NCBI GenBank assembly: GCA_963801165.1 | Contig: CAWDDT010000005.1 | Coordinates: forward strand, 544,001 to 608,000 | Direction of reading: 5' to 3' | DNA length: 64,000 bases | Origin: an uncultured bacterium | GTDB lineage: Bacteria > Actinomycetota > Acidimicrobiia > Spongiisociales > UBA5794 | Shown here: positions 7,749 through 64,000 of the stretch, one piece after another | How positions within the stretch are numbered: position 1 is the first letter of the stretch | Layout of the letters: the number at the start of each line of letters is the position of its first letter | Translations under genes and position numbers: made by a program | Notes under the pieces: generated by a model | What the model was told of the DNA's origin: nothing | Database searches by the model: none | The model's input: the letters and a program-made list of their open reading frames with translations, nothing else

Positions 7749-7851
7749 GACCTCACTCGAATCTCGTTTGTCTCGAACACCGTTCGTCTCCCCTTTCCTT
7801 GAAGGTCTCGCAGATCAGGAACTCTCTTGCCTGCACCTCTCTGTCGTAATA

Positions 7852-8082: not shown

Positions 8083-8110
8083 GTGAACCGAATTGCGCCT
8101 GGAGTCAAAG
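8083..8110 (+). promoter_or_regulatory. Putative ECF promoter motif A
   Basis: GTGAACC-N16-CAAAG about 33 bp upstream of 8143; same spacing as the other copies. Confidence 0.65.
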
Positions 8111-8142
8111 TGCAGTGAGTCAGTCCAGATATTGATCGGAGG

Positions 8143-8679: not shown

Positions 8680-8682
8680 GTC

Positions 8683-10300: not shown

Positions 10301-10771
10301 TAGAGAGGAACTTTCTGCCCAAAGGTGCAATGCCGCTTGCTCGGCAATTGTCGGCCGGGCGGCTGCGGCGATCAGAATGTGTTGGCAACGCGTTGGTACA
10401 GTCTTTCGTTGTTCACCCAGCGTCTCCATCCGTTGCCGGTGGGGTCCGGAAGTGGCATGACCTCGACTCGGGGGTTCTCCGACAATCTGATGATCGCGGG
10501 GTACCTGCTGCATGTCCTCGACGACCGCCGAGCGACCTGGTCTAGATTCGATAAGCAGCAATCCGGAATCACGGGTCGTGGACAGCAGAGCACACGTTCG
10601 AGGGCTTGCGCAGCCACGTGCCGCAGAGCCTCCACACTCTCAGGACGATTCCGGGGCCGCGCCGCCTTTCGTTGCCGCTGCGAGCGCGGCGGTTGTGGAA
10701 CAGCTGATATGTTCCGCTCGGTGGCAATACCCATACCCGGGGGCGGCGGCTTCGTGAGAATGGCTACCGTC

Positions 10772-11926
10772 CTAGCCGTGGCTTGCGCTCGCGCGATTCA
10801 GCTCCCACACTGTCACTCCATCGTGGTCAATGACGCCAATGTAGGGATCGCCGGACACCGGGTCGAGTCCCAGACTGTTCGGTGTACCCGGGTTCCGGCC
10901 CCCAAATGGATCCGGTATCGGAAGTGCGCGCACAAGGTTCCCAGACCGATCGATTTCTACGTAGGCGCCTATTCCAACTTCCTCGTTGATCTCGGAGAAT
11001 CCAGCCAGCAGCAGATGCAGCGAACCCTGGCGATCGGCGATCACCTCTACAACCGCAAAGACATCTCCACCATCGATCGACGTCATCTCGAGATCGACCA
11101 ACATGGCTGGCTGTGCGTCCGGGAGTGACATACGAACAACTGCGGGATTGCTGGGGTCGGCGGCAAGGCGATAGCGGGAGCCTGCCGGGGTCCGCAGATA
11201 GTCAACCGCCTCGGCAACGAGCGCCCCGTCTTCTATCGCAACCGCAAAGAATCGGGACCCGAGCGTTTCACGTCCAAATACGACATCGCCGTCGTTGTTG
11301 ATGAGGCTCAACAGCCTGTCGCTTTCCTGGTAGGTGATGCGATTGCCAATGATTGTCGCCAAACGCATGTTCGTGGATGAGGCAATAGCGGTCCCGTCGC
11401 TGAGTATCTGCAAACCGGAGAGGGGAGCTTCGTGGGCAATGTCTACCGAATCGAAGAAAGATCCGTCGCGTCCGTACCGGGCGATTCGATCCTTGTAGTT
11501 ATCGAGTATCCACCACCGGCCGAGGAGGTCAAGCGCCACCGGCAGTTCGGGACCCCACGGCTCGTTGACGGAATCCCCGTTCCCGAGCAAGGACTCGTCG
11601 CTCCCATAGCCAAGCGACAGCGCCACTTGCCAATCCTCCGCGAGCGAGAACGGCGTGAGGGAAACGTCATAGTGACGAGTAATCGGATCGAGGCCTACCG
11701 TTGCGGGCGCGACAGTAGTTGTCGAGGTGGTAGTTGGTTCGTCGATTCCGACGTTCTGTGTGGGAACCGTTGATGACCCGGTGTCCTGTATGGCTCCCGT
11801 CGAGCGGGAGGTTCCGGGAGGCACCGGTGGCTCGCTGGTCTCGCTGCACCCAGCGAGACCAGCGAGGACCACGACGAATACCAACCCGAGCTTGAGCGTC
11901 AACTGCAAGTGCCGTCCCAAAGACAT
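10772..11926 (-). CDS. Lipoprotein with NHL-like beta-propeller
   Basis: Lipobox LAGC, Thr linker; GYGSDESLLG...WGPELPVALDLLGRWWILDNYKDRI is paralogous to a segment of 12567-14036. Confidence 0.78.
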   Translation of the reverse strand: MSLGRHLQLTLKLGLVFVVVLAGLAGCSETSEPPVPPGTSRSTGAIQDTGSSTVPTQNVGIDEPTTTSTTTVAPATVGLDPITRHYDVSLTPFSLAEDWQVALSLGYGSDESLLGNGDSVNEPWGPELPVALDLLGRWWILDNYKDRIARYGRDGSFFDSVDIAHEAPLSGLQILSDGTAIASSTNMRLATIIGNRITYQESDRLLSLINNDGDVVFGRETLGSRFFAVAIEDGALVAEAVDYLRTPAGSRYRLAADPSNPAVVRMSLPDAQPAMLVDLEMTSIDGGDVFAVVEVIADRQGSLHLLLAGFSEINEEVGIGAYVEIDRSGNLVRALPIPDPFGGRNPGTPNSLGLDPVSGDPYIGVIDHDGVTVWELNRASASHG

Positions 11927-12570
11927 CCTCCCCAGCGACGTACGCCGGTGAAGGACGAATCACCTCGGTAGGTCCTGACCCATAACCCGGTGCCATCCGC
12001 CTCGCCCTTGGCTTCGATGATGTTGTCGGTGTTCCAGGTCGATGTTGTGGAGTAGATCATCCCAATATGCGAACTCGAAGCCAGCGCATCCATGTAGATG
12101 GTTGACGCCTTGCTGATCTGAGACAGATTTGGGCCGTCTCCTGCTTTGAATTCCGAGGCTGTAAAGGCCCCGTGGATGTTTCTGAGTTGCGGCCAGTATC
12201 TGTATCCGGTCGACGTTTCATTGTCAACCAGAGCCCAAGATTTGAATGTGAATCCCGAGCAATCGCCGCCCTCGCCATGCGTACTCGCAGTCTTAACGGG
12301 ATCGCCGGGTTGGTCATCGATGTTGTTGTTGTTCCAACAGCCGCCGTACCAGTGATACCCCTCATAGCGAGCCACATAGGAGTAGCTGCGAGCAGACGAG
12401 CGATTCCAGGACGAAAGGCTGTAGTCCGTATCCGTGTTGCAGTTGTCCCAGAAGCCATGGGCCGCTGCCTCGGGCGCGTCGATCGCGCTAACGGCAATAA
12501 GCCCCACGAGGAGACCAACGAAGAATCGGACGATGTGGAGGCGCCCGATGTAGCGAATGTGGTGTGTCAT
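11899..12570 (-). CDS. Secreted NlpC/P60-like cell-wall peptidase
   Basis: Signal peptide ending AAA; GGDCSGF (Cys), SHIGMIY (His), IIEAKG (third residue). Confidence 0.78.
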   Translation of the reverse strand: MTHHIRYIGRLHIVRFFVGLLVGLIAVSAIDAPEAAAHGFWDNCNTDTDYSLSSWNRSSARSYSYVARYEGYHWYGGCWNNNNIDDQPGDPVKTASTHGEGGDCSGFTFKSWALVDNETSTGYRYWPQLRNIHGAFTASEFKAGDGPNLSQISKASTIYMDALASSSHIGMIYSTTSTWNTDNIIEAKGEADGTGLWVRTYRGDSSFTGVRRWGGCLWDGTCS

Positions 12571-14036
12571 GACAAGCCTCCAATCTCGAAACGTGCAATC
12601 CAGAATCCAAGTTCATCGTTGCGCAGCTGGTAGAGGCCATTGGGACCAACCTCGAATCGTCCCAGCACCGAGCTGTCCGCCCACCGTGAAGCGTCGACTG
12701 CGAAATGCTCCGTTGACCCATCAGCGTTCAGCACAATGACCTCGAAGACGGCGTCGTTGTCGGTCCAAGTCCGGATGACGACCAGCAAGCGCCCGTTGAC
12801 AATCTCGGCTAGCTGAACTTCGCCGATTTCCCGGTCACTTGTGATACTCCACACAGATCGAATTGAACCCCCACTGATGAGAGCGAAGAGCGCGTGGTCG
12901 CTGTCGGCTGACACGACAAGCTGAGGTTCGGCCAGATCAATCGAGCCGGTCGCCAGCGCACCGTCAGACTCTGACGTGACTCCCGCCTCAGCGCTGGTTA
13001 CCTCAACGAGTCCGCCGATTTGAGCAGCGTCCCTGGTTCTCAAAGGTACTCCAACCGGTGCATTCTCGAGCTGGTCTGGTCGAGCAACCGGTGTGGCATC
13101 GTAAAACGTCGTTGCCCACACACTCCTCGTAGCATCGTGGAGTACCACGCTAGAGTCGATCGCTTCGAGCTTCTCCGGAAGAACATCAGCGAGGAAGCTG
13201 GTCGAGAGGAGCGCGCCTCCCGGGTCGTATGCGGTGATCTTCGGATGGATGCCCGCGCCACCATCGAGAACGAAACGCGTCCCGTCGTCACCTATCGCCA
13301 GATCGGCCAATCCTCCTGTGTGCTCAATAGTCTGAACCTCCGGAGTGCTCGCGCCGCTTGACCACGTGAGCAAGCGGCCGTTAACGCGGTCCAAGACGAC
13401 CAAGGCACCATCGGGATCGAATGCGAACGCGGCTGGACCCTGAACATCTGATTCGTGGCCACCGGTGACACCAAACTCGTTAATCCCATCACCCCATCCT
13501 CCTGAGACGATGATCTCTTCTGGCGGAGTAGCTGATGGGGATGCGGGTAGATGGGTATGGACAGCCGTGCTGTAGCTCCACGCTTCGTGAAACAGGTCAC
13601 GCCGATCCGGTACGCGCACTGTCTCTCCAGTTGCAGTGTTTGAGATTTCCGCGTAGTACTGGAAGCCGTTGTCGGTCACCTGTGGCGGGATGGTTGCTTC
13701 GAGGATAGGGGGGTACTCCCCGGGCTCAAGACTGATTCTCTGGAACGAGTCTGACCCTTGGCTCCTTACGAACACGAAGCCTTCGACGTCACACAGCATG
13801 TCACCGCGTTCGAATGCCTCTTCATCCCAAGCGCAGACAGTGTCATACACAAGCGAGACCGGCTCACCTCGTTCGACCAATACCGGCTGCTTGTGAAACG
13901 CCTGGAATCCTTCCGTTGATGTCGCCAGTCCACGGCTCTGGCCGATGACAATCAAACCTCCTACAGTGACCCCGAGGGCTAGGCCCACTGTCGCGGGCCA
14001 CCGCACGAGTCTCGAGAAAAGCTGTCCCTTGCGCAC
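12567..14036 (-). CDS. Secreted/membrane-anchored protein with NHL-like beta-propeller
   Basis: GGAGG SD then GTG 14036 (track start 14057); N-terminal TM; GGWGDGINEFG...QGPAAFAFDPDGALVVLDRVNGRL. Confidence 0.78.
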   Translation of the reverse strand: MRKGQLFSRLVRWPATVGLALGVTVGGLIVIGQSRGLATSTEGFQAFHKQPVLVERGEPVSLVYDTVCAWDEEAFERGDMLCDVEGFVFVRSQGSDSFQRISLEPGEYPPILEATIPPQVTDNGFQYYAEISNTATGETVRVPDRRDLFHEAWSYSTAVHTHLPASPSATPPEEIIVSGGWGDGINEFGVTGGHESDVQGPAAFAFDPDGALVVLDRVNGRLLTWSSGASTPEVQTIEHTGGLADLAIGDDGTRFVLDGGAGIHPKITAYDPGGALLSTSFLADVLPEKLEAIDSSVVLHDATRSVWATTFYDATPVARPDQLENAPVGVPLRTRDAAQIGGLVEVTSAEAGVTSESDGALATGSIDLAEPQLVVSADSDHALFALISGGSIRSVWSITSDREIGEVQLAEIVNGRLLVVIRTWTDNDAVFEVIVLNADGSTEHFAVDASRWADSSVLGRFEVGPNGLYQLRNDELGFWIARFEIGGLS

Positions 14037-14066
14037 AATTCCTCCATTCCTCGACAACGTTGATGT

Positions 14067-14094
14067 CTTTGCCGTGAATCGTCGACTGGTTCAC
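14067..14094 (-). promoter_or_regulatory. Putative ECF promoter motif A for the propeller-NlpC/P60 operon
   Basis: Minus strand CCGTGAACC-N16-CAAAG, about 30 nt upstream of the 14036 start; both halves identical to the 8081-8110 copy. Confidence 0.65.
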
Positions 14095-14175: not shown

Positions 14176-16836
14176 TCAAGGATGAATGTCGAGGCCACAC
14201 TCATGTCCATGTTCATGGTCAATGGCCGCCGGTCGCATCCGGCTGCGGGCGAACATTGCGGAAACGTCATCAGCTCCGGGTTGCCGTGTTCGGTGGGTGA
14301 GGTGGGTGCATTCTTCCCGGCCGGGTTCGCGGGTGGCAAGGTAGAGGGTGTTGGCGTTGCGCCCCCGGCTGAGGGCGACGTAGGCCCATTCCCGGTCGGT
14401 GGTTCCGGTGATGACGGTGAAGGTACGTCCGGTCGTGATGCCTTGGGCTTTGTGGGCGGTGAGGGCGTATCCGTACCCGACATTCCCGTCGGTGAGACAC
14501 CAACCCGGAAGCTCTCGGGTTTCGGGGTCTCGGTCGAGACGAACCGTAACGGTTCCGGCTTTCTGGTCGACGGCGGTGATGGTGCCGAGGTCGCCGTTGA
14601 GGACATCGAGGTGGTGTTGGTTTCGGCGGCAGAGGATCCGGTCACCGGCCTGGAGAACCACGCCCGACGCTTCGTGTGTGGGTCCGTGGAGGCGTCCGGA
14701 GGTGGCGAGGTGCTGGCGTGCCTTTTCGTTGAGTTCGGTGACGGTGTCGTTGTCGTGGGCTAGGAGCATTGCCGAAGCGATGTCACCCGCTCTCTGGACG
14801 TGCCGGTACCAGTCGCTGCTCGCTTGTGCAATCGTGTCGGTGCGGGTGCGTCCGAGGATGAGGCGCCGATGCTCGGCATAGGCTTGCATTGCTTGTTGTA
14901 CTGATCCGTTGCGGAGCTCGTCGAGTGCTTGGCGTTCCCAGGCCGCCTGTTGACGAACGTTGTCGGTGAGTTCGACGGCTGGTAGCCGGTTGGCGAGGGC
15001 ACGGAATAGGCCGCCAGCGTCGATCTCGGGGAGTTGCTTGTAGTCCCCGATCAGGATCAGTTTCCCTTGTGCTTGTTCGACCAGGTCGACGACGGCGGCG
15101 AGTTGCCGGGTGCCGACCATGCCGGCCTCGTCCACAACCACAACAACACCGGTAGGAAGGCCGGACCCGTGGAGGAGCCGGGCGAGGGTGGTGGAGGGGA
15201 CGCCGGTGTCGGTTTGTAGGCCGGCTGCGGTGCGGGCGGCAAGCGCGGCACCGATGATGGGTCGTCTGGTGAGTTGGGCGAGTTGGTTGATGACGGCGAC
15301 GACTGCTGTTTTGCCGCTGCCGGCGGGGCCGATACCGATGTCGATGCTGTTGCCGGAGGTTGCGAAGCTGCGCACCATCTGGCGTTGCCCTTCGGTGAGT
15401 TCCGGTCTGTGCCGTAGCCAGGTTTCCACGAGACGCCGGGGTGCCTGCCAGCGGCCCTGACCTACACCGGCCATTGCGTATTCGATGATCCGCTGTTCGG
15501 TGGCGAGGAGTTCTGCGGTGGTGTAGCTGGGCAGCGCTGGCGCGGGGAACGGCGCACCGTCACGGGTTCGCATCGCAATCACCGCTCCCTCGACGAGTTC
15601 TCGATCCTCCGGCTCGGCGGGCGAATCCGCCTCGTCCCCGGTAGCGGGTTCGAGTTGAGGGCCGGGTAGCAGTGGGATGATGTCACGGCCGGTGAGGAAT
15701 GAGTTGGCGAGGGTCTCGATCTCAGCCCGGGTGCCACCCTCGGGGAGTGCCGCGGCGATGTGTTGGATGACTTCTGGTGTGGCGAATGTCGACCTGTGGG
15801 CGGTGAGCCCGTCTGGTGACGCCAGATCCGCAAACAACGCTCCCACATCTGGTGTGGTGACCCGTCTGCTGCGATCGACGATCCGACTGATCCTCTCCGG
15901 AGTGAGACCCACCTTTGCGGCTCGTCGCTGCCAGACCGCTTCCAGCTCGTCGAGGGGACGGTTGGTCTTGGTCGTGCGGGTGGCGATCACCGCCACCTGC
16001 CGCGCCGCCGCCGTATCCGGAAGACCCTCTTCCTGTCGCCAGGCTTCGAGCTGTCGACGCCGCTGGGAGAACGCTTCGATCTGGGTACGGGTGAACCCGG
16101 CAATATCGGCGACACCGTGATGTACCGGCTGCCACCGCACCCCGAGCCGGTCCGTGAGCTCCCGGCGCAACACTGCCTCATGCAGGTAGCCGGCGGCGAG
16201 CTGATGCCGATACAACAGTCGACCGTCGATAGTCCGCCACACCCCATCGACGCCGTTGACCGTGTTGGCAACGACGACATGGGTGTGTAGCTGCGGGTCG
16301 TCGGCCCGTGACGTGTATTCGGTGAACGCCGCCGCCACATACCCCGACGTCGCGATCGGCCAGGTCTCTACCCGATACCTCGGTCGCCCATCCGGGCCAC
16401 GAACCCGATTTCCGTTCTCGTCGACGACCGGTGTCTTGGTGGCGCCACGAGTGTCGGATGCCACCGACTCCAGATAGCTGAAAGCCTGTGACGTTGCCTC
16501 GCCGAACGCCTCCAGGACCTCTTTGCGGGTGAGTTCGTCACCCAGCGCCCACAACAGCGACACCGACTTGTCCGCCGAGAAGGTCACATCCCACGCCGCC
16601 ACCCCGTCCGTGCGGAGACGACGCCCCAACTGCTCACCGGTGCCGGGATGGTTCCCGTCGAACAGCCGCACCAGACCCTCCGCCGACACACTGCCCGCAA
16701 GGCCCAACTCGGCGGCTCCCGACCCGCACCAACGACCGGTGGCGGTGCCGCCGCGCAGGTAGTAGTCCTCCCGCGGTGAGATCTCACCCAGCTTCTGCAG
16801 GTAATAGTCCTTGACCGCCTTCGCCAGACTCAACAC
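14176..16836 (-). CDS. MobF (TrwC/TraI-like) relaxase with C-terminal helicase
   Basis: N-terminal DYY..DYY tyrosines, DVTFSADKSVS, TSRADDPQLHTH (HUH), Walker A GPAGSGKT, VVDEAGM, YALTAHKAQG. Confidence 0.95.
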   Translation of the reverse strand: MLSLAKAVKDYYLQKLGEISPREDYYLRGGTATGRWCGSGAAELGLAGSVSAEGLVRLFDGNHPGTGEQLGRRLRTDGVAAWDVTFSADKSVSLLWALGDELTRKEVLEAFGEATSQAFSYLESVASDTRGATKTPVVDENGNRVRGPDGRPRYRVETWPIATSGYVAAAFTEYTSRADDPQLHTHVVVANTVNGVDGVWRTIDGRLLYRHQLAAGYLHEAVLRRELTDRLGVRWQPVHHGVADIAGFTRTQIEAFSQRRRQLEAWRQEEGLPDTAAARQVAVIATRTTKTNRPLDELEAVWQRRAAKVGLTPERISRIVDRSRRVTTPDVGALFADLASPDGLTAHRSTFATPEVIQHIAAALPEGGTRAEIETLANSFLTGRDIIPLLPGPQLEPATGDEADSPAEPEDRELVEGAVIAMRTRDGAPFPAPALPSYTTAELLATEQRIIEYAMAGVGQGRWQAPRRLVETWLRHRPELTEGQRQMVRSFATSGNSIDIGIGPAGSGKTAVVAVINQLAQLTRRPIIGAALAARTAAGLQTDTGVPSTTLARLLHGSGLPTGVVVVVDEAGMVGTRQLAAVVDLVEQAQGKLILIGDYKQLPEIDAGGLFRALANRLPAVELTDNVRQQAAWERQALDELRNGSVQQAMQAYAEHRRLILGRTRTDTIAQASSDWYRHVQRAGDIASAMLLAHDNDTVTELNEKARQHLATSGRLHGPTHEASGVVLQAGDRILCRRNQHHLDVLNGDLGTITAVDQKAGTVTVRLDRDPETRELPGWCLTDGNVGYGYALTAHKAQGITTGRTFTVITGTTDREWAYVALSRGRNANTLYLATREPGREECTHLTHRTRQPGADDVSAMFARSRMRPAAIDHEHGHECGLDIHP

Positions 16837-53962: not shown

Positions 53963-54550
53963 ATGGAGGCAACCCTCTTCCTGCTGACCGGGTTCCCCGG
54001 AACGGGGAAGCTCACGGTGGCTCGATCACTCGCCCAGCAGATCGAAGCGATCGGCGAAACGGTCCGTGTGGTCGACAATCATTGGATCAACAACCCCATC
54101 TTTGGGCTGGTCGCCCAAGACGGCATGACCCCCCTCCCGTGGACGGTCTGGGAGCGGGTCGGTGAGGTAGCCGAAGCAGTCATCCGCACCGTAGAAGAAC
54201 TAACCCCCCGAGGATGGCATGTCATCTTCACCGCCTACCTCGACGGTGTCACCGACACCGGGTACGCACCCCGCCTCGCAGCGGTCGCCGCGTCGCGGGG
54301 TTCTGTGTTCGTTCCGGTGCGGCTCTTGTGTGACCCAGAAGAGAACGCCAGAAGGATCGTTTCGTCCGAGCGGAGTGACCGCATGAAATCGATCGACCCC
54401 GGCGAGCCATTCCGGTTAGCAGCCGACGGTGAGCCCTACCACCCTGGCCACCCCAACACCCTGACCCTCGACATCACCGCCACACCACCCGACGACGCCG
54501 CGGCGAAGATCCTCACACACACGGTCGGAATCGCCGCTCGCCACGGGTAG
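53963..54550 (+). CDS. P-loop small-molecule kinase (AAA_33/NMP-kinase-like)
   Basis: LLTGFPGTGKLT, VVDNH, LLCDPEENARRI..R lid. Confidence 0.82.
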   Translation: MEATLFLLTGFPGTGKLTVARSLAQQIEAIGETVRVVDNHWINNPIFGLVAQDGMTPLPWTVWERVGEVAEAVIRTVEELTPRGWHVIFTAYLDGVTDTGYAPRLAAVAASRGSVFVPVRLLCDPEENARRIVSSERSDRMKSIDPGEPFRLAADGEPYHPGHPNTLTLDITATPPDDAAAKILTHTVGIAARHG

Positions 54551-55423
54551 CGCGCTCACCGTGAGCCGAAGACCGATCGGAACCTAGCCGGGCCACAGTC
54601 TGTCAAAGTCGTGCGTTTCAGCGTTCGTACGCTGCTCGGATCTGGCTCCCGATGACCCCGAGCTCAGCGCGGGTCGGCGCATCTTCCCAATCAGCGTCAA
54701 TCTTGCGGTCTGGGTATAGCAAGCCTCGCGTTGATTCATCCGCCCTCCTGGCCACCATCCTGAATCACCAAATAAGGGCCATATCGCACTGATCACCCAA
54801 CCACGCATATCGGCAGCTGCTGATCGGTTGGGTCGGTCACGGGAAGTGGTGGTTTCGGATCGCTGACGGGAGCAAGCAGATTGAGCCCGCTGCCTGCTAG
54901 CTCTGCCTATTTCGCAGGTTTTGGTGCCGGTTTCGTGGTGCCGGTGTTGTATTGGTGGAGTGCAGGTCGGTTCGGTTCCCGGTGAGGGGAAGGAACCATG
55001 ATGACAACCAAAGAAACCAGGTTCATGCCGGCGTTGTGGACTCCGGACATCGACTCGTTTGAGGTGCGCCAGGCTATCGCCGGTTTCCTGGCCGGATATG
55101 GTGAGATGACTCGTGAGGCCTACAGCTTGGATCTTCGGCAGTGGCTGAGGTGGTGCGACACCCATCAGCTGAAGGTGTTTGATGTGAAGCGGGCCCATAT
55201 CGAGTTGTTCGCCCGCAGTCTTGAGGCAGACGGCAAAGCGAGAGCCACCGTGGCTCGGCGTCTATCGACGGTGGCTGGGTTCTACCGATATTGCTTTGAG
55301 GAACAACTGATTCCTTTGTCGCCGGCGGTTCATGTGCGTCGACCCCGCGTCGACTACGAATCCAACACCACGGGATTGGATCGCAACGAGCTTGGCATGT
55401 TCTTAGTCCAAGCCGGACTCGCC

Positions 55424-56842
55424 GGGCCTGTCAGATGCTTTGTGTAAGTGGGGTGGCCTGACATAGTGGCCCTGGACGCGGGTGGCGTTTGGGGTCTGTG
55501 GAAGGACCCACTGATGATGATTGACAAGGACGAGGCGACGGAGGTGGCGAAGGCTGCTGCGACTCCGCTGGTGTCGGCTGAGGTGTTGGACGAGTTGATG
55601 GCTCGGGTCAATGATGAAGGAGCCGAGCTGTTGGGCCCTGAGGGGCTGTTGTCGCAGGTGACCAAGGCGGTGTTGGAACGGGCTTTGGATGAGGAACTGA
55701 CTGGCGAGTTGGGTTATGAGAAGCATGACCCGGCGGGTCGGGGTTCTGGTAACTCGCGGAACGGCACCAGTTCGAAGACGGTGTTGACCGATATCGGTGC
55801 TATCGATTTGGAGATACCTCGGGATCGGAACGGCGATTTCGAACCGAAGATCGTCCCTAAGGGCACGACCAGGTTGAAGGGCTTCAATGAGCGGATCATT
55901 GCGTTGTATGCCCGAGGGATGACGGTTCGTGATATCCGTTCTCATCTCGCAGAGATCTACGGGGTTGACGTGTCACCGGATCTGATCTCGAAAGTCACCG
56001 ACGCTGTGTGGGATGAACTCGAATCCTGGCGCAACCGGCCGCTGGATGCGGTGTATCCGATTGTCTATATCGACGCTCTGAACATCAAGATCCGAGACGG
56101 GATCGTCCAGAACCGCCCGGCCTATCTGGCCGTCGGAGTTGATTTGGAGGGCCGCAAACACGTCCTTGGGATCTGGATCGGCGACTCGAACGGTGAAGGC
56201 GCCAAGTTTTGGCTCAAAGTGCTTTCCGAACTCAAGAACCGCGGCGTCAACGACGTGTTGATCGTCGCCTGTGACGGTCTCAAGGGTCTCCCCGAATCGA
56301 TCGAAACCGTGTGGCCACAAGCAGTGATCCAGACATGTGTCGTGCATCTGCTGCGAGGTTCGTTCCGATACGCCTCATACAAAGACCGCAAGAAGATCGC
56401 CACCGCGCTCCGGCCGGTCTACCAGGCGACATCAAAGGAAGCCGCCGTCGAGGCGCTCGGCAACTTCGAAGACGATTACGGGACAAAGTATCCCGCCATC
56501 GTCAAGTTGTGGCGGGACGCTTGGGAAGAGTTCACCCCCTTCTTGGACTATCCGCCGGAGATCCGCCGAGTGGTTTACACCACCAACATGATCGAATCGA
56601 TCAACTACCAGCTACGGAAGGTCACCAAGAACCGGGGGCACTTCCCCACCGAGAAAGCAGCCCTCAAACTGCTTTATCTCGCGGTGCGTAACATCACTAC
56701 CAACAGAGGAGGTGACACCGGCACAGGAACATGGGGATGGAGCAAGTGCCTCAACGCACTCGCCATCTACTTCCCCGGACGATTCACCATCGTCTAACCA
56801 AAACCGAATGCCACCCACTTACACAAACGTGCTGACACCCCC
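55424..56842 (+). mobile_element. IS256-family insertion sequence
   Basis: TIRs GGGCCTGTCAG..TTGTGTAAGTGGGGTGGC / GCCACCCACTTACACAA..CTGACACCCCC; 8-bp target duplication GACTCGCC (55416-55423, 56843-56850). Confidence 0.95.
55514..56797 (+). CDS. IS256-family transposase
   Basis: NSRNG, PRDRNGDFEP, VYIDA, ACDGLKG, QTCVVH, YTTNMIES. Confidence 0.96.
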   Translation: MMIDKDEATEVAKAAATPLVSAEVLDELMARVNDEGAELLGPEGLLSQVTKAVLERALDEELTGELGYEKHDPAGRGSGNSRNGTSSKTVLTDIGAIDLEIPRDRNGDFEPKIVPKGTTRLKGFNERIIALYARGMTVRDIRSHLAEIYGVDVSPDLISKVTDAVWDELESWRNRPLDAVYPIVYIDALNIKIRDGIVQNRPAYLAVGVDLEGRKHVLGIWIGDSNGEGAKFWLKVLSELKNRGVNDVLIVACDGLKGLPESIETVWPQAVIQTCVVHLLRGSFRYASYKDRKKIATALRPVYQATSKEAAVEALGNFEDDYGTKYPAIVKLWRDAWEEFTPFLDYPPEIRRVVYTTNMIESINYQLRKVTKNRGHFPTEKAALKLLYLAVRNITTNRGGDTGTGTWGWSKCLNALAIYFPGRFTIV

Positions 56843-57546
56843 GACTCGCCGGTGGGAGAGACCATGCTTTGGCTTGCCTGCTGGCGTTGAACGGGTTGCG
56901 GATTTCAGAAGCCCTCAACGCCGATATTGAGGATCTTGGGTTGGAACGCGGTCATCGCACCCTGACGGTCACTAGGAAGGGAGGCAAGATCGTCACCATC
57001 CCAATGGCACCCCGGACCGCAAGAGCCATCGACCTCTGTGTTGGTGGACGAGAGAACGGACCCATCTTCCTGAACCATGACGGCACCCGCCGCCTCGACC
57101 GGCACGCAGCTACCCGCATCTTCAAACGGCTTGCCAGGCACGAAGGGATTGAGAAGAACATCTCACCGCACTCGCTGCGGCACTCATTCATAACCGCCGC
57201 CCTCGATGCCGGTGTCGCTCTACGAGATGTCCAAGAGGCAGCATCCCACGCCGATCCCAGAACAACCATGCGCTACGACATGGCAAGACGATCACTAGAC
57301 CGGCACGCCACCTACATCGTCGCAACCTTCGTCGCCGGAGCCAGCCGATAGAACGCCCCGCTGGGCGTCGCCACCACCCACCGTGATGGCGCCGCGCCTA
57401 TCTGCCGGCTCGGGGACGCGAGTTGGTAGTCTATCCCGTAGCCGATCGGCGGGAAGAGCCGGGCGCCACTCGGCATCCGGCATATCACCTACCCAATACC
57501 ACGGCCTTGCGCGGCCCGTGGGGTACCCCGCCTCCGACGCTAGGTC

Positions 57547-58305
57547 CTAAGGCGAGCTGTTCACACCCGGGTCTTCGTTCGGGGGCGGAATGGGAATAGG
57601 CACGAGGTTGATTGTCTTACCTGGGACGTCGAGGCTGAAGCTGGCACACGGCCGTTCGTCAGTGGGTTCAGTCGCCACCACCATGCGCCACGTTGTCAGG
57701 TTATGGCTGTCTAGCAGTTGGTTGATCCGTTGCTGGGCATCGGCGATAGAGAGGCACTCCTCAGTATGGAACATGTCGACGAGGAGACTGATGAGTGCGG
57801 TGTTGTCATCTGGGGTGCGTGTTGGTTCGTGGTTGGCGAGGCCAAGTTCCTTGCACAGCGATTCATCGTGGCTTGGGAAGACCCACAGGGTGCCGGTGTC
57901 GTTGACGCATCCGACGAGTGAAGGGATTTCCCCTTTGTCTACCGATTCGGACTTGAGTGTGCCGTCTCGCCAGGGCTGCTCGCACGCAGCAACGGTCAGC
58001 GCTGGTGGGGCGGCGACCGCTTCTCGTGTCGAGTCGAGGGTGGTGGCTTCGTAGCAGACAACGACGCTGGGTTGTGTGGCTGGGCGGGCGAGGTAGTAGG
58101 CGGCAGCAACGCCGGCCAGTGCAGCGGCGGCTGCAATGGCTACGGTCAGGACTCGTCGTTTCCCTTGCGCCACAGTGGGAGTGTCCGCCTTGGCGGCCGC
58201 CTTGACACGCTGGCCGAAGTCCGATTCGGGGCCGGGCATGTCTTTGAGTGGCGCGGGATCGGACCGGCGCAGCATCTCGAACGGGTCTTCGTTATCTTTG
58301 GGCAC
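57547..58305 (-). CDS. Putative membrane anti-sigma factor with Cys-rich extracellular domain
   Basis: Overlaps sigma stop; DPFEMLRRSDP N-terminus, single TM (VLTVAIAAAAALAGVAAAYY), six extracellular Cys. Confidence 0.75.
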   Translation of the reverse strand: MPKDNEDPFEMLRRSDPAPLKDMPGPESDFGQRVKAAAKADTPTVAQGKRRVLTVAIAAAAALAGVAAAYYLARPATQPSVVVCYEATTLDSTREAVAAPPALTVAACEQPWRDGTLKSESVDKGEIPSLVGCVNDTGTLWVFPSHDESLCKELGLANHEPTRTPDDNTALISLLVDMFHTEECLSIADAQQRINQLLDSHNLTTWRMVVATEPTDERPCASFSLDVPGKTINLVPIPIPPPNEDPGVNSSP

Positions 58306-58927
58306 ACGCACCCCCTGATTCTCCCGGTTCGTCCCCTCGGCTTGTGTCTGATATGGATGTGTCCGCCTCACCAGGATTGTCGTCCGTCCCCAACCGGCTC
58401 AGCTGTTGCTCAAGGCGCTTGCGTGCCGAATAGCGGCGATCTCGCACTCTGTCGGGCCGAATGTCGAGGACGATTCCGATTTCGCTATTGCTGAGCCCTT
58501 CGAAAGCTGCGAGGCGTATGAGTTCTTGGTCTATTGGAGAAAGCTGCGCTAGCGCCAGCAAGATTGCGTCTGATCCCTCGCTGGAGGTGACCAGTTCGGC
58601 GGGATTGTCGCTGCGTTTCTGCCGCCAATCAGTTGTGAGGCGATCGACCAACCGGCGCCTACGGGATCGTGCACGGTGTTGGTTGGCGAGGACACGGCGA
58701 GCGACCCCGTACAGCCAAGCTATGTGTACGTCGGCGGAGCGCACCTGATGAAGCTTGCGCCAAGCGACCACATAGACCTCGGCCACTGCATCGTCGGCGT
58801 CCTCAGGAGTCGCCGCCCGCCTCCTGCAATAGGCAACGACCTGTCTGAAGGTTGCTGCATGAAGCTCGTCAAAGAACCGATCCGCTTGCAGGCTGGCTTC
58901 CCTCGCGGTGTTGTCTTTGGCAGCCAC
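58292..58927 (-). CDS. ECF-family RNA polymerase sigma factor
   Basis: VVAYCRRR..DADDAVAEVYVVAWRK, AWLYGVARRVLAN, LAAFEGLSNSEIGIVL..VRDRRYSARKRL. Confidence 0.93.
   Translation of the reverse strand: MAAKDNTAREASLQADRFFDELHAATFRQVVAYCRRRAATPEDADDAVAEVYVVAWRKLHQVRSADVHIAWLYGVARRVLANQHRARSRRRRLVDRLTTDWRQKRSDNPAELVTSSEGSDAILLALAQLSPIDQELIRLAAFEGLSNSEIGIVLDIRPDRVRDRRYSARKRLEQQLSRLGTDDNPGEADTSISDTSRGDEPGESGGACAQR
58358..58382 (-). promoter_or_regulatory. Putative ECF promoter motif B inside the sigma gene, upstream of the anti-sigma gene
   Basis: Minus strand CGAC-N13-CGGACACA. Confidence 0.62.
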
Positions 58928-58948
58928 GTCCCCCCTCAGGACGGCAGG

Positions 58949-59548
58949 TCATGTGATCCACACCGACGACACGTCGTTGTTCCATCCCGTGGCCATCGAT
59001 GTAGCCACATCGTACGCTTGAGTCTGACTTGTCGGATACCAGTCACCAGTGCCGCCGGCGAGATCAGCGAAGTACGCAGAGCATGCGCCGATTTTGAACG
59101 ACGACGTCTTCTGGTTGAAACCCGAATCCACAAGGTTGTACCACACTTGTCGGCCCCGGAGATAAAGAGCCGATCCCGTATAGGACGTGCCGTCGTAGAG
59201 ACGCACGGAGCTGGAGCAGTACGTCACACCCATCGTTGCAGCGTCCAGGTCTTGGTGAGGACGGGCTTCGACTTGCGGTAGCTTGCTCTCGAGCTCGGCG
59301 ATCCGCTTGTCCATCTCCACCTCGGTGCGGAAACACTCCGGTGTGTCGATGGCCGCTGGCCAGACCATGCACGCAGCGGCGCCCTCCCAATCACGGCTCA
59401 TGTCAATGAGCTCGCCCTCAAACAACGCCAGGGTCGCCTCTGCACTAGGCGGCGCTTCGTTCTCCGAAGCGGATGCCGTTGCCGGCGCCGCCATCACAAT
59501 GAACATGGCAATCGTCACAATCAAGCGAGTGATTCGTCGGTAATCCAT
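58949..59548 (-). CDS. Secreted protein with N-terminal Cys pair and beta/gamma-crystallin-like domain
   Basis: Signal peptide ending ASA; ACMVW..PECF; LYDGTSYTG, FNQKTSS, WNNDVSSV; resembles 8143-8679. Confidence 0.78.
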   Translation of the reverse strand: MDYRRITRLIVTIAMFIVMAAPATASASENEAPPSAEATLALFEGELIDMSRDWEGAAACMVWPAAIDTPECFRTEVEMDKRIAELESKLPQVEARPHQDLDAATMGVTYCSSSVRLYDGTSYTGSALYLRGRQVWYNLVDSGFNQKTSSFKIGACSAYFADLAGGTGDWYPTSQTQAYDVATSMATGWNNDVSSVWIT

Positions 59549-59623
59549 AGTCTGTGTCTCTCCTTTGCTAAACGGCGCCTGGCATCGCGCCGGCGCAGCA
59601 ACAGAACCACGCCTATCAGGATG

Positions 59624-59648
59624 TGTGTCCGGGTACGGTCAAACGTCG
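59624..59648 (-). promoter_or_regulatory. Putative ECF promoter motif B
   Basis: Minus strand CGAC-N13-CGGACACA, 75 nt upstream of the 59548 start. Confidence 0.65.
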
Positions 59649-59707
59649 GCGACATTTCTTAGCGAACCGACACTAATAACACGACCAGTTCTCTCAGGAG
59701 GTGACTC

Positions 59708-60307
59708 ATCGCACAAGTAGTAGGGCTGTCGCTGAGCAGCAACGCCGTGTGCGCGCTGTCAGTGTCCACCCTCATTGCCAGTCAACACGGACTCATCGAT
59801 CACCTGCGCCAAACAGGAGTTCGGGTTGTTCCGGTTGCTCAAGGAAGGTCGTATCCGCCCTGGATTCATGTGATCGCGTGGGAGGAGCTGGCAGAATGGA
59901 AGGCCGAGGACACTCCCAGCCTGATCGTAATCGCGCAGCGGGCAGACGAGTCTGAGCAACGGTTAGCCGCCAAACTTGGTGCGGCGGCGCTGATCGCCGA
60001 CGATAGGTTACGCGAAGATTTCGCGTCGGTTATTCAGGCTGTGACGGCAGGCTTCTACCCGGTGCCCCTTCGCGTCGCTCCGAGTCTGGCATCCCGCATT
60101 GCCGTTCCCCCGGCCAGCATCGGGTTGGATGACGTCGCCATACTGAAGTACCTGCTGCAAGGGGCGACCGTTGCGGATGTCGCAGCTGAGATGGGATGCT
60201 CCGAGCGGCATGCCCGCCGCAAACTACGGACAGTATGGGATCAAATGGGGGTTAGTGGGCGCCGAGAAGGCCTTGCCGAAGCCGTACGGTGGGGACTGTC
60301 GCATTGA
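59708..60307 (+). CDS. LuxR/NarL-like regulator with degenerate receiver domain
   Basis: C-terminal HTH ILKYLLQGATVADVAAEMGCSERHARRKL..MGV; no canonical receiver Asp motif. Track start GTG 59747; frame open back to ATC 59708 after AGGAGGT. Confidence 0.75.
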   Translation: MAQVVGLSLSSNAVCALSVSTLIASQHGLIDHLRQTGVRVVPVAQGRSYPPWIHVIAWEELAEWKAEDTPSLIVIAQRADESEQRLAAKLGAAALIADDRLREDFASVIQAVTAGFYPVPLRVAPSLASRIAVPPASIGLDDVAILKYLLQGATVADVAAEMGCSERHARRKLRTVWDQMGVSGRREGLAEAVRWGLSH

Positions 60308-60535
60308 GGTCTCGACAGCCTCATCCAGAGGATCGATACCCCGGTAGGTGCTACGTGGAGGCCAACCCGAAAACGGTCGGTTGTGTGCAAGGCTCACCGA
60401 GCCAGGTTCCTATCCGACCTAACGCTGGCGTCAACAGCCACCACCGGGATCCCGACTGCCACGCCTCGTATGGCACCTCGCTGCATCCCATCTCCTCTCG
60501 CCCCGACCTGGGCCGCCCGAGCTGAGGAAGGCGTC

Positions 60536-60560
60536 CGACAAACAGGGCTGTGCGGACACA
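60536..60560 (+). promoter_or_regulatory. Putative ECF promoter motif B for the peptide-ABC operon
   Basis: CGAC-N13-CGGACACA about 50 nt upstream of 60610. Confidence 0.65.
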
Positions 60561-60609
60561 TAAGGATTGTCTGGGGCTCTCACAGTGGGAGCCCTGTTGG
60601 AAGGAGATG

Positions 60610-60927
60610 ATGGAAGTGGAGCTAGTCGTACGTCGTAGACTGCCAGCGCTCTTGCTTGCGTTGGCAATGCTCGTGGGGATGCTGGGCGTCACGGCCGGTC
60701 CCGCAGACGCGGTGGATTGCATCCGTGGTGACACGGTGAGCTACTCGAGCGATTGGGCTCGAACCGTCGATGTGAACGGCTATTGCGGCACTGTCGGCGC
60801 GAATCACAAATACGACCCGGTATGGAGCAGCAACAACTACTGGACCGGTTGGTATTACGGTGCCGACGTCGCCCAGACGCCGAGCACGGCGGAGCTGTAC
60901 CTACACGCACATTGGTCCAGTTCGTAG
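60610..60927 (+). CDS. Small secreted protein (about 70-aa mature, two Cys, Trp/Tyr-rich); bacteriocin-like candidate
   Basis: AAGGAG SD; Sec signal ending ADA; mature VDCIRGD...GYCG...YWTGWYYG; first gene of an exporter operon. Confidence 0.72.
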   Translation: MEVELVVRRRLPALLLALAMLVGMLGVTAGPADAVDCIRGDTVSYSSDWARTVDVNGYCGTVGANHKYDPVWSSNNYWTGWYYGADVAQTPSTAELYLHAHWSSS

Positions 60928-60932
60928 TTAGC

Positions 60933-61541
60933 ATGCGACTCGTGAGAAGCGTCGTTTTGCTTGGGCTAGTTGTCCTCGTTGCCGGTTGTTCAGGCAACGG
61001 GGACAACCCGTCTGTCCCGTCGTCGTCGGCCGTACCCGGAGAAGATATCCCGGGCCTCTATCAGGAGGCAGAAGCTGCGGGCGCCGACGAGAGCCAGCTT
61101 GCGGCACTTGCGGACGCTGTTGTCACCTTCGGTGAGTATGAGACGTCGATGCAGCAGACGTTTGCGTGCATCCGTGATGCTGGAGTTGAGGTGGTGGAAC
61201 TGGGGACGGACGAGTCACGCGGGTTCCCAATACTCAACTATGCGACGGCGGCCAGCGCCCCCGGCCTCACAGAGGCTGAGGTAGCGGCGGCTACCGAGGA
61301 TTGTATGGTGCGGTTTGGCAAGTTCGTGGATACAGCATGGCAGGTCTATAGCGATGAGGCTGTCGAGGCATCGGATGCTCGTTGGGATCGGGTGCGAGCA
61401 CCGCTTCTTGAGTGTCTCTCGGCGGCTGGAGAGGATCTCCCTCCGGATGCGTCGCGCACCGAGATGCTTGCGGCGTCGCAGCAGATCATGGATCGTGGCG
61501 GGGTGGATTGCCTGACCGAGGCTGACTTCTTCGGCGAGTAG
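60933..61541 (+). CDS. Lipoprotein with paired Cys motifs
   Basis: Lipobox VAGC; FACIRDAGV, DCM, LECLSAAG, DCL. Confidence 0.8.
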   Translation: MRLVRSVVLLGLVVLVAGCSGNGDNPSVPSSSAVPGEDIPGLYQEAEAAGADESQLAALADAVVTFGEYETSMQQTFACIRDAGVEVVELGTDESRGFPILNYATAASAPGLTEAEVAAATEDCMVRFGKFVDTAWQVYSDEAVEASDARWDRVRAPLLECLSAAGEDLPPDASRTEMLAASQQIMDRGGVDCLTEADFFGE

Positions 61542-61564
61542 TAGGAGGCGACGACATCCGAGTT

Positions 61565-62587
61565 GTGCTGTTGTTCGTGACGCTGGTATTCCTGGTCCCA
61601 GGTGCGATCTTGGCTGCAATCGTGGTGGCAGGAAGCGATGACCCTTCTCCGCTGACGGGTGACGTCGCTTCGGAGCCGCTCGTTGTAGATGTGTCCGTCT
61701 CGAGTCGTCTTGACGAATACCGGGTCGCGCTCACTGTGAATAGTCTCCCGCCGGCAACGCTCAAGGCCGTAGGGCTGTCCGGTCGGATAACCGACGTCAA
61801 TGTTGCTTCTGGGGCAACGTTGACCTCCGGTGACCCGATTCTGGCAGTAGGTGACGTCGAGCGACTGGCCATGGTGGCCGACGGTCCGCTGTGGCGTGAC
61901 CTCGGCAGCGGCGACAACGGTGATGATGTCGAGAGGCTGCAGCGGTTCCTCACCGACCTTGGCTACGACACGAGTGGGGCGGACGGTTCCGTTGGTCCGA
62001 GCACGTTGGCAGCGATTCGAGCGTTCAACAACGACTACGGGTGGGGTCAGCCGTCGGGCCTGTTTCGTAGCGGTGCCGTCATCTGGATCGGGGCAACCGA
62101 CTTCGCTGTGGGCGAAGTGGCTGTCAAGACCGGAGATCTGATCGACGGCGGCCAAGAGCTCGCCATTGGCCCCGAATATGCCAAGTCGGTGACAGTGGCA
62201 GAACCGCCCAATGCCCCCAGGCAAACAGATGAGGACTACGTCCTGGTTGTAGAAGGCATTTCTGTTCCCTACGTACCGGGGTCGGACGTAATCGACGACT
62301 TCGATGACGCTCAAGCGGTGGCGAATGCAGTTGGTGACAGTGAGGAACCAGGCGGCGTCGTGCAACGCAATGAAGCTCGACAAGTCAAGGTCGTCCCCGC
62401 TACCGCGGTGGTGACGGATCAAGCAGGGGGACGATGTGTCTATGTCCCCGACGGATCTGGATTCCTCCCCGTTGCTGTGGAACCTATCGGCGGAGGCGTC
62501 GCCACTGTCGAGATAGACGCCTCGTTCAACCACGAAACCGTCCTCTCCAACCCGCGACAAGTTCTCGGGGCACCGACGTGCAGCTGA
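61565..62587 (+). CDS. Peptidoglycan-binding, membrane-fusion-like transporter adaptor
   Basis: N-terminal TM; lipoyl-like GRITDVNVASG; PG-binding WRDLGSGDNGDDVERLQRFLTDLGY; VVPATAV. Confidence 0.82.
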   Translation: MLLFVTLVFLVPGAILAAIVVAGSDDPSPLTGDVASEPLVVDVSVSSRLDEYRVALTVNSLPPATLKAVGLSGRITDVNVASGATLTSGDPILAVGDVERLAMVADGPLWRDLGSGDNGDDVERLQRFLTDLGYDTSGADGSVGPSTLAAIRAFNNDYGWGQPSGLFRSGAVIWIGATDFAVGEVAVKTGDLIDGGQELAIGPEYAKSVTVAEPPNAPRQTDEDYVLVVEGISVPYVPGSDVIDDFDDAQAVANAVGDSEEPGGVVQRNEARQVKVVPATAVVTDQAGGRCVYVPDGSGFLPVAVEPIGGGVATVEIDASFNHETVLSNPRQVLGAPTCS

Positions 62588-63216
62588 GCGCGACCGACAT
62601 CACACATCGATACGACCGCACAGCCTCACCGGTCCTCGACGACGTCACTCTTGAGGTGGGCCTTGGCGAGCGAGTAGCGGTGATGGGCCCGTCGGGCTCG
62701 GGCAAAACCACCCTGCTTGCGATCCTCGGCGGCATGCTCAAACCCACACACGGTCGTGCCGCCATTCACGTCGACGACGACCGAACCCTCTCGCCCGGCG
62801 GCTATGTAGCATGGGTACTCCAGACCAGCAACATCCTGCCCGACCGCTCCACCCTCGACAATGTCACTATCGGAGCCTTCGCCGCAGGTCAAAGACGACC
62901 TGCCGCGACACGCGAAGCCGGACATGCCCTCGGTTTGGTTGGCCTGTCCTCCCTTGCGACAAGGCCGGTGCGCCAACTCTCCGGAGGTGAGGTGCAACGA
63001 GTCGCCACCGCAAGGGCCATCGTTTCACGACGTCCGTTCATTCTCGCCGACGAGCCTACCGGCCAACTAGACCAGGCTACATCCGTACCGGTCCTTGATG
63101 CGCTCCTTGCTGACAGCGAGTCCAGAGGTGTGGTCGTTGTAACTCACGACCCTGCCGTCGCGCAGCGGTGCGATCGGATCTACCGGCTCGAGAACGCCCG
63201 ACTCGTGACGGCATGA
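62578..63216 (+). CDS. ABC transporter ATP-binding protein (LolD/MacB-like)
   Basis: GPSGSGKT, LSGGE, ILADEPTGQLD, VVTHD. Confidence 0.93.
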   Translation: MQLSATDITHRYDRTASPVLDDVTLEVGLGERVAVMGPSGSGKTTLLAILGGMLKPTHGRAAIHVDDDRTLSPGGYVAWVLQTSNILPDRSTLDNVTIGAFAAGQRRPAATREAGHALGLVGLSSLATRPVRQLSGGEVQRVATARAIVSRRPFILADEPTGQLDQATSVPVLDALLADSESRGVVVVTHDPAVAQRCDRIYRLENARLVTA

Positions 63217-64000
63217 CTCGCACTCCGAACCCCGCACCTCGTCAGCGTTGGCCCCTAACAGCTGCGGTTGGAGAGGGAGTACGCAACGCGGCCCACGGCC
63301 GGACTTCTACCGCAGTGCTCTTGTTATTGATCGGCTGGGGAATCGGAGCACTCGCAAGCCTCGACGCCCGCAACGTAAACCAAATAGTCATCGAGGAACA
63401 GCAGTTCGTAGACGCCGGGGGTCGGGTTCTCGTCGCAGAAACACCCACCGGCGTAGACCGGCAGCGCTGCGACGCTCTCAACTCAAGTACCGGCGTGGTC
63501 GCGGCAACGGCCGTATCCCGTCTAACTGTCTTCTATGAGATCAGAGCCCTTCCCGGCAGCCAGGTCGCCGTCATCACCGCGACCAGCGGGATCGCCGGGT
63601 TTGTCGCCAATGCTGCTCCGGTCGGAACTCAAGCAGCATTGACTCCCCAACTCACAGAACGAATCGGAATCGGACCCGGCGAATCTATCGAACTAGTCGA
63701 ACCGAACCAACGCTCCGGACCAGTGACCACGAACGACACCGTTCCAGCAGAACCGCTCACCATCGGTCCAGCAGTAGATCTTGCTCTACTTGGTGACACC
63801 TACAACACCGGGGTGCTGATCCCGGCCGCTCCGATCGGGGTCGCGGATGCATGTTACGTTTGGGCTGAACCCAGCCACCTGGAAGCTCTCTCGGCGGCGC
63901 TCCCCGCACTACTCGTCCGTGATGGTGAAGAGGCTACCGTCCGACCGCGGCTCTTCGAAGGCGAGTTCACGGTGGACTACCAACGCCAGTACGACTCCCG
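63213..64000 (+). CDS. Putative ABC permease (FtsX/MacB-like), truncated by the window end
   Basis: ATGA overlap with the ATPase; MTRTPNP..EGVRNAAHGRTSTAVLLLLIGWGIGALASL TM followed by an extracellular domain. Not in the ORF track, consistent with no stop before the window end. Confidence 0.72.
   Translation, partial: MTRTPNPAPRQRWPLTAAVGEGVRNAAHGRTSTAVLLLLIGWGIGALASLDARNVNQIVIEEQQFVDAGGRVLVAETPTGVDRQRCDALNSSTGVVAATAVSRLTVFYEIRALPGSQVAVITATSGIAGFVANAAPVGTQAALTPQLTERIGIGPGESIELVEPNQRSGPVTTNDTVPAEPLTIGPAVDLALLGDTYNTGVLIPAAPIGVADACYVWAEPSHLEALSAALPALLVRDGEEATVRPRLFEGEFTVDYQRQYDS

Follow-up and report, generated by a model that had tools for sequence, protein, structure and literature searches.

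What is the function of a two-block DNA motif, CGAC-N13-CGGACACA, that is repeated around the gene of one extracytoplasmic function (ECF) sigma factor? The motif lies in a 64,000-nucleotide stretch of contig CAWDDT010000005.1 (assembly GCA_963801165.1, positions 544,001 to 608,000 of the forward strand), which comes from an uncultured bacterium of the Acidimicrobiia and is called the window below. Two ECF sigma factors, sigma 1 and sigma 2, are encoded in the window, and the motif surrounds the gene of the second one. It keeps its sequence and its positions in related loci, is conserved there, and is distributed together with one clade of sigma factors. We consider it likely that sigma 2, encoded beside it, reads the motif as its group-specific promoter, which would place this factor under both positive and negative autoregulation.

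An exact-match scan of the window found the motif three times with zero mismatches, 12 fixed bases and identical spacing, which confirmed the coordinates, the strands and the fixed bases of the original prediction. That prediction had counted three sites in all; the exact copies are where it placed them, but the total becomes four with one degenerate copy:

59624..59648, minus strand: P1, CGAC-N13-CGGACACA, 75 nt upstream of the ATG at 59548; it heads the operon of an I36/crystallin-like gene, the sigma gene and a putative anti-sigma gene
58358..58382, minus strand: P2, CGAC-N13-CGGACACA, within the 3′ tail of the sigma open reading frame (ORF); the sigma stop codon follows after 66 nt, the GTG of the putative anti-sigma gene after 46 nt
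60536..60560, plus strand: P3, CGAC-N13-CGGACACA, 46 nt upstream of the ATG of a small secreted protein; it heads the cargo operon
59650..59674, plus strand: P4, degenerate, CGAC-N13-CCGACACT, 72 nt upstream of a LuxR-like ORF; it stands back to back with P1

All copies in the window face a gene on the same strand, and the exact copies end 46–75 nt before its start codon. In 100 dinucleotide-preserving shuffles, the mean number of CGAC-N13-CGGACACA matches was 0.01, and none of the 100 had three. The octamer CGGACACA by itself is not unusual (5 in the window, 3.78 expected, which is chance level), so the signal lies in the pairing of both blocks at fixed spacing. With the core relaxed to CGAC-N15-GACAC, six matches were obtained in the window versus 1.96 expected, four of which are inside this 2.2-kb locus. 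We take GACAC, which P4 has in common with the other sites, as the presumptive −10 core; the (C)GCGAC block would then probably be the −35-like element, and the CCGGACACA block would carry the −10-like core. A sigma-70-type promoter scan of 57300–61100 returned no site. One more CGGACACA octamer, the fourth, is located at 61690–61697 (minus strand), antisense within a PG-binding gene; we did not count it as a site because its CGAC is 6 nt upstream, not 13.

A scan of GTDB genomes using an alignment of 18 sigma relatives gave at least 80 loci (1,035,688 bases). The relatives of sigma 2 come mostly from Acidimicrobiia metagenome-assembled genomes. The closest of them, 68–79% identical, are on short metagenome contigs, and L001 represents these in the comparison at the DNA level. 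Among the loci listed, the seven closest, L001–L007 (79,303 bases, sigma 43–77% identical), bear the motif. Allowing at most one mismatch, 19 matches were found in L001–L007, compared to 7 in the other 73 listed loci (956,385 bases). Seventeen of the 19 sit at three homologous positions. The P1-equivalent copy is present in 6/6 loci with a first operon gene (L001–L006), the P2-equivalent copy occurs in the sigma 3′ end of five of the seven (L001, L003, L004, L006 and L007), and a copy on the opposite strand, facing away from the sigma operon, was found in L002–L007. The start codon mostly follows 42–63 nt after the motif. A bipartite motif of fixed spacing that precedes the sigma factor's own operon and is conserved in orthologues, as is typical for an autoregulated promoter, is found in the window and in L001–L006. 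The first gene, sigma and the downstream protein are kept as a triad in L002–L006, whereas the L001 locus stops within sigma and L007 has no first gene; orthologues of the downstream protein, the putative anti-sigma factor, directly follow sigma on the 3′ side in L002–L007.

The consensus of the 17 foreign sites is CGCGAC-t-N12-CCGGACACA, with variable spacer and flanks. A position weight matrix (PWM) built from these foreign sites only ranked P1 (26.0 bits), P2 (16.2 bits) and P3 (14.7 bits) first, second and third in the window; the next score was 13.5 bits. In loci with protein identities of just 35–50%, the two blocks persist, while their flanks and the 13-nt spacer between them have diverged.

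P2 overlaps coding sequence, and its conservation could therefore be read at two levels. In the window, L001, L003, L004 and L006, the first C of P2 is at codon position 3, and the encoded peptide is xD-(variable)-xDT. In L007, the same 25 nt are read with this C in codon position 1 and encode RHSTRSGHN. The Thr codon within P2 is ACA in 5/5 in-frame loci, which amount to about three independent lineages, while ACA makes up 8–22% of the Thr codons in these genes. Because two reading frames are used, the peptide between the blocks is variable and a minority ACA codon is retained, we conclude that P2 is kept as DNA. The window and 5/7 related loci thus carry a predicted sigma-dependent internal promoter for the anti-sigma gene, of the rseA P3 or rshA type.

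These data also bear on the simplest alternative, that the repetition is due to chance or is a functionless by-product of coding or neutral conservation. The rate of the octamer alone would fit this idea, some of the conservation within the close pairs window–L001 and L003–L004 is possibly neutral, and P2 does encode a conserved D...DT peptide in five loci. It leaves unexplained the shuffles, none of which gave three matches, the blocks that outlast their spacer and flanks at 35–50% protein identity, the internal copy that L007 retains in another frame, and the rare ACA codon in all five in-frame loci. We regard chance or neutral conservation as a very remote explanation.

Besides the motif, two further features were observed in this set of loci. 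After the divergent motif, L003 (∼5330–5478, minus strand) and L004 (∼2020–2166, minus strand) share a conserved stretch of ∼100 nt that includes a GC-rich, hairpin-like string, and in L003 no ORF of 40 codons begins within 149 nt of that motif; the stretch may be a leader or a small RNA. The L004 contig is labelled as uncultured Gammaproteobacteria, and four of its genes, those for sigma, the first gene product, the downstream protein and the LuxR-like protein, group tightly with the genes of L003, which is an Acidimicrobiales metagenome-assembled genome; the L004 contig is probably mis-binned.

If the motif is a promoter, which sigma factor would read it? The operon headed by P1 has three genes:

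58949..59548, minus strand: first operon gene, a 199-aa secreted protein; its C-terminal domain is beta-gamma-crystallin/peptidase-inhibitor-I36-like by sub-threshold Pfam matches and the fold of a homologue
58292..58927, minus strand: ECF sigma factor (sigma 2), 211 aa, by Pfam and TIGR02937; its C-terminal tail of ∼35 aa carries P2
57547..58311, minus strand: putative membrane anti-sigma factor; the GTG at 58311 gives 254 aa, and 20 nt are shared with the 3′ end of the sigma gene

Sigma 2 is an ECF (group IV) factor. It matches Pfam Sigma70_r2 (E 2.3e-8), Sigma70_r4_2 (E 1.3e-8) and Sigma70_ECF (E 7.3e-6) with region 3 unmatched, and it scores 71.9 bits against the ECF superfamily model TIGR02937, the cut-off of which is 42.9. 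No named subfamily could be assigned; all 24 specific NCBIfam models compared (SigE, SigM, BldN, SigK, ShbA and others) were far below their cut-offs, the best being the BldN family with 62.9 bits versus a cut-off of 206. Within the sigma gene, the DNA around P2 (58354–58382) is 72% identical to 58582–58610 in the linker between regions 2 and 4. The two copies of this repeat, D1, encode DDNPGEADTS and SDNPAELVTS; the sigma tail may have arisen from an old duplication within the gene, of which the repeat would be the trace, or the similarity may be due to chance.

We placed 79 sigma segments, from the window and 78 loci, in a maximum-likelihood tree; L012 and L062, which have a stop in the matched stretch, were left out. 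The eight motif-bearing sigmas form one clade with support of 98/95. In the neighbouring clade, we found a variant motif, TGAY-N13-xGGGCAY, in divergent pairs ∼85 and ∼125 nt upstream of sigma; the strict variant pattern flagged 5 of the 10 members (L008, L016, L028, L050 and L053). L070, which has homologues of both the first gene and the downstream protein, carries GAAAG-N13-CGGACA at two places, upstream of the first gene and within the 3′ end of sigma. Motif type and sigma clade change together, and because both the neighbouring clade and L070 carry variants, we conclude that the motif drifts together with the sigma factor.

The sites could instead be promoters served by another alternative sigma factor that is encoded elsewhere in the genome. 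The window shows only 64 kb of that genome, the evidence that assigns the motif to the adjacent sigma is indirect, and in L007 the sigma gene is not preceded by a copy. However, among the 80 loci listed the motif occurs only beside this sigma clade, it changes in step with sigma across the neighbouring clades, and 6/7 related loci have it before the operon that contains sigma. Moreover, the sole other sigma factor in the window, sigma 1, has a different motif of its own. Promoters of a distant sigma factor are, in our opinion, unlikely.

A regulator gene is situated between the two divergent units and has to be considered as well:

59747..60307, plus strand: LuxR/GerE-like helix-turn-helix (HTH) protein, 186 aa, by sub-threshold Pfam matches (GerE 19.2 bits, cut-off 23.5; HTH_23 22.2 bits, cut-off 24.6)

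The blocks might be operators of a transcription factor, this protein or some other regulator, rather than sigma elements. Orthologues of the LuxR-like gene occupy the same place in L001, L003, L004 and L006, and in the MibX/MibR system, as the excerpt of PMC4973701 describes it, a LuxR-type regulator works beside an ECF sigma factor. But a profile hidden Markov model of the protein, at E up to 10, detected no such gene in the DNA compared (up to 7 kb on each side) of L002, L005 and L007, all of which have the motif fully conserved. By inspection, the blocks have no dyad symmetry, so that neither the symmetry nor the constant presence of the regulator gene (missing from 3/7 motif-bearing loci) that a LuxR/GerE-type operator calls for was found. 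In addition, the motif always faces a downstream gene, mostly at 42–75 nt, as a promoter does, and its type tracks the sigma tree. Since loci without the LuxR-like gene still have the motif, we disfavour the operator explanation and hold it to be quite improbable; it includes binding of the sites by the adjacent LuxR-like protein, which had been named at the outset as one of the findings that would overturn the promoter assignment. The LuxR-like gene itself may be a target of the motif. An exact or variant copy precedes it in 4/4 other loci that have it, at 4087 (minus) in L001, 6182 (minus) in L003, 2909 (minus) in L004 and 6141 (minus) in L006.

Taken together, the three homologous positions in seven loci, the ranking by foreign sites, the sigma phylogeny and the persistence of the motif without the LuxR-like gene support the original assignment of the motif as a promoter of the ECF type. 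Several observations weigh against this reading. A typical ECF promoter shows AAC at −35 and CGT at −10, and both are absent from the CGCGAC ... CCGGACACA consensus of the 17 sites. The 13-nt gap between the blocks matches ECF geometry only with a −10 core of GACAC or ACACA. L002 and L005 have no P2-equivalent; at the sigma end, they show no more than a string resembling CGAC-N11-CGG(C/Y)YACA. No copy is recognisable upstream of the sigma gene of L007 itself (best candidate, 4 mismatches), so autoregulation is not universal in the clade. The core of P4 scores 9.9 PWM bits, which is background level, as the other 73 listed loci contain 26 hits of at least 10 bits; a part of these 26 may be true sister-clade variant sites. 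The putative anti-sigma factor, assigned from its position and conservation, matches no known family. Finally, the loci compared are all short, and most of them come from metagenome-assembled genomes.

With these points weighed, we still favour a promoter read by sigma 2. ECF factors usually regulate their own genes, and according to the excerpt of PMC7826278 this is the accepted basis of ECF promoter prediction. From position, conservation and co-distribution we infer that sigma 2 reads the motif, where transcription would start, and that the downstream protein would act as its anti-sigma factor. Once released from the membrane partner, sigma 2 would transcribe four units. From P1, it would transcribe its own operon, encoding the secreted I36/crystallin-like protein, sigma and anti-sigma, which would be positive feedback. 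From P2, embedded in the sigma 3′ tail, it would produce an extra anti-sigma message for negative feedback or fast shut-off. P3 would serve a lineage-specific cargo operon with the small secreted protein, the lipoprotein and the PG-binding/ABC exporter set, and P4 would drive the LuxR-like regulator gene, more weakly.

How well can the partners of sigma 2 be named? The putative anti-sigma factor has a conserved N-terminal segment, a single hydrophobic stretch and six invariant cysteines in its outer part, and because of these features and its position directly after sigma we call it a putative anti-sigma factor. Neither the protein nor its family profile had a match in Pfam, NCBIfam or PDB (PDB at E up to 1), and no domain of the known anti-sigma families zf-HC2/ZAS, RskA, RseA or FecR was recognisable in it. 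The first gene product is below the gathering score for both Crystall_3 (15.7 versus 27.3 bits, E 0.017) and Inhibitor_I36 (13.5 versus 21.1 bits, E 0.073). In its family, each of these two models matches 4/7 members, with best E values of 0.0056 and 0.025, respectively. An 82%-identical homologue has an Atlas model with a TM score of 0.65 to a cluster in which 83% of the members have Inhibitor_I36. The first gene has 132 homologues; the 120 of them that are listed are all without a Pfam domain, and hypothetical wherever named, and its family profile had no match in PDB at E up to 1. The labels given earlier to these genes are thus to be read with reserve, since 'crystallin' has sub-threshold Pfam matches and a fold-level lead through a homologue behind it, 'anti-sigma' is positional, and 'LuxR-like' is a sub-threshold Pfam label.

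Is such a circuit new? E. coli rseA P3, C. glutamicum rshA and MibX/MibR offer parallels, and for this reason we regard the circuit as one of a known kind. In E. coli, a sigmaE-dependent rpoE promoter is accompanied by rseA P3 within the rpoE coding region (excerpt of PMC8595263, citing Rhodius 2006). As there, an ECF sigma factor would transcribe its own operon, and a further promoter of this type within the sigma gene would give an anti-sigma-only message. Different from the window, however, rseA P3 is located ∼228 nt before rseA, compared to ∼40 nt here, the phylum and the motif are other ones, no I36-like first gene is part of the E. coli operon as described, and RseA is a member of a defined anti-sigma family, in contrast to the protein here, which matches none. 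RshA is a cytoplasmic zinc anti-sigma factor, while a membrane segment and a Cys-rich outer domain are present in the putative anti-sigma factor of the window. In the actinobacterium Corynebacterium glutamicum, as in the window, a sigma-dependent promoter serves the anti-sigma gene alone: a SigH-dependent promoter drives rshA, which was proposed to allow quick shut-off of the response (excerpt of PMC3489674). Unlike sigma 2 as we read it, sigH is described there as having housekeeping promoters and not being autoregulated.

By gene set, the locus resembles MibX/MibW/MibR of Microbispora corallina (and PspX/PspW/PspR), in which an ECF sigma factor, a membrane anti-sigma factor and a LuxR-type regulator share one bipartite ECF motif; in the excerpt of PMC4973701, GAACC-N15-GCTAC is found before the sigma operon, the regulator gene and the transporter/immunity operons beside a secreted peptide. 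The same excerpt describes mibXW as co-transcribed and mentions no internal promoter. Furthermore, no lantibiotic biosynthesis genes were found with Pfam at the locus in the window. The MibX motif itself was tried and rejected, as GAACC-N14-16-GCTAC had three matches among the 80 loci listed, none near sigma, and one unrelated match in the window at 22214.

Compared by description only, groups such as ECF218, ECF221 and ECF222 of ECF classification 2.0 are also similar. They are restricted to Actinobacteria, have a putative anti-sigma factor at +1 that carries a single transmembrane helix and usually no Pfam domain, and have subgroup-specific predicted promoters (excerpt of PMC7826278). In the part of its supplement text that was searched, where the motif logos are figures, the strings GGACA, GACAC, CGGAC, GCGAC, TGACC and GGGCA are absent; the group descriptions in the same material make no mention of an I36/crystallin-like gene at −1, and the word 'crystallin' has 0 occurrences. 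Full-text literature searches gave no description of this sigma clade. Within these sources, including the searched part of the supplement, we did not find the motif itself described.

What would the sigma factor control besides its own genes? The operon behind P3 extends to the end of the window:

60610..60927, plus strand: small secreted protein, ∼105 aa with signal peptide, first gene after P3, recognised as an ORF with a ribosome-binding site
60933–61541, plus strand: lipoprotein, by a sub-threshold LPAM_1 match
61565–62587, plus strand: PG_binding_1 protein (Pfam PG_binding_1, 33.1 bits)
about 62578–63216, plus strand: ATP-binding cassette (ABC) ATPase (Pfam ABC_tran, 96.3 bits)
from 63213 to past the window end (64000), plus strand: putative permease, by position only, with no Pfam match

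Stop and start codons of the cargo genes overlap. The small secreted protein has no Pfam family and just five homologues, unnamed or hypothetical, and neither it nor the exporter genes were found in L001–L007. The related loci place other genes there. In L001, a variant copy at 1325 (plus strand) is upstream of a secreted protein of ∼417 aa that has a GDSGG motif and matches Trypsin below threshold. The divergent copy heads membrane or secreted proteins without family in L002 and L005, with an adjoining subtilase in L005, and it heads the LuxR-like gene in L006. The proposed tie between the sigma triad and a peptide/ABC operon therefore holds for this genome, but the cargo is not conserved, and relatives have other secreted-protein genes in its place.

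A 16-nt inverted repeat (60534–60549/60590–60605, 81% complementary) pairs the −35/spacer region of P3 with the ribosome-binding site of the small secreted protein. An RNA-structure explanation of the leaders and of this repeat was dropped because the folds were no better than those of shuffles (z-scores −0.80, −0.25, −1.38 and +1.73). Rfam gave a single unrelated sub-threshold match, snoZ6, in 54000–64000, and BLAST of 57400–64000 against plasmids returned only short ABC-ATPase fragments from five records, none of which covered more than 2% of the query.

Sigma 1 (8683–9324), which is 27% identical to sigma 2, is the centre of a second module, element 1. The claim that both modules have the same wiring with unrelated motifs holds. 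Around sigma 1, TGAACC-N14-18-CAARK is found at matching places, with four matches in the window versus 0.23 expected; this pattern is post hoc, as it was written after three sites had been seen. The matches are as follows:

7851–7878, minus strand: element-1 motif before a divergent amidase-like gene
8084–8110, plus strand: element-1 motif before the I36-like first gene
9245–9270, plus strand: element-1 motif within the sigma 1 3′ end, before its downstream gene
14067–14093, minus strand: element-1 motif just before a 496-aa ORF (12567–14057)

The first gene of element 1 also has a sub-threshold Inhibitor_I36 match. BLASTP and profile comparison (probabilities 0.6 and 0.4) detected no homology between the neighbours in element 1 and the families of element 2. 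From the 27% identity and the different motifs only, we infer that sigma 1 and sigma 2 may be orthogonal.

The surroundings of the two modules contain genes of mobile DNA. At 54998–57351, directly adjoining the sigma 2 locus, a tyrosine recombinase/integrase gene is split by a Mutator-family (IS256-like) transposase gene:

54998–55447: N-terminal SAM-like part of the integrase
55448–56797: transposase
56869–57351: catalytic part of the integrase

A TrwC-type relaxase with a RecD-like helicase part is encoded at 14176–16836 (minus strand), which suggests a conjugative or integrative element extending over part of the window. Both ECF modules (4000–14000 and 54000–64000) lie in DNA of lower G+C, 0.58–0.62 versus about 0.64–0.67. 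None of the ORFs of the sigma 2 operon and its cargo passes the filter of third-position G+C (GC3) > 0.70 that most large ORFs pass. This composition is consistent with acquired DNA.

A broader picture can be drawn for the Acidimicrobiia, and we offer it as speculative and rather doubtful. A widespread three-part ECF module may exist in this group, in which signalling would require, as a third partner, the secreted I36/beta-gamma-crystallin-like protein, acting for instance as a decoy or sensor of extracellular protease. The sigma C-terminal tail, otherwise unconserved, would be kept mainly as the carrier of the anti-sigma promoter. The non-canonical CGCGAC-N12-CCGGACACA motif would connect interchangeable secreted cargo to the module; in one genome this would be a protease, and another genome would have a small secreted protein together with an ABC exporter.

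The logic of the circuit, with autoregulation, one more sigma-dependent promoter that serves the anti-sigma gene, and an adjacent target operon, is textbook. Two sigma modules with different motifs in one window could serve as insulated parts for synthetic circuits. The shift of the motif by one or two bases across neighbouring clades provides a natural series for the study of co-change between ECF sigma factors and their promoters. For an uncharacterised ECF sigma clade of the mostly uncultured, little-studied Acidimicrobiia, the locus offers a testable promoter, four predicted transcription units and a small candidate regulon.

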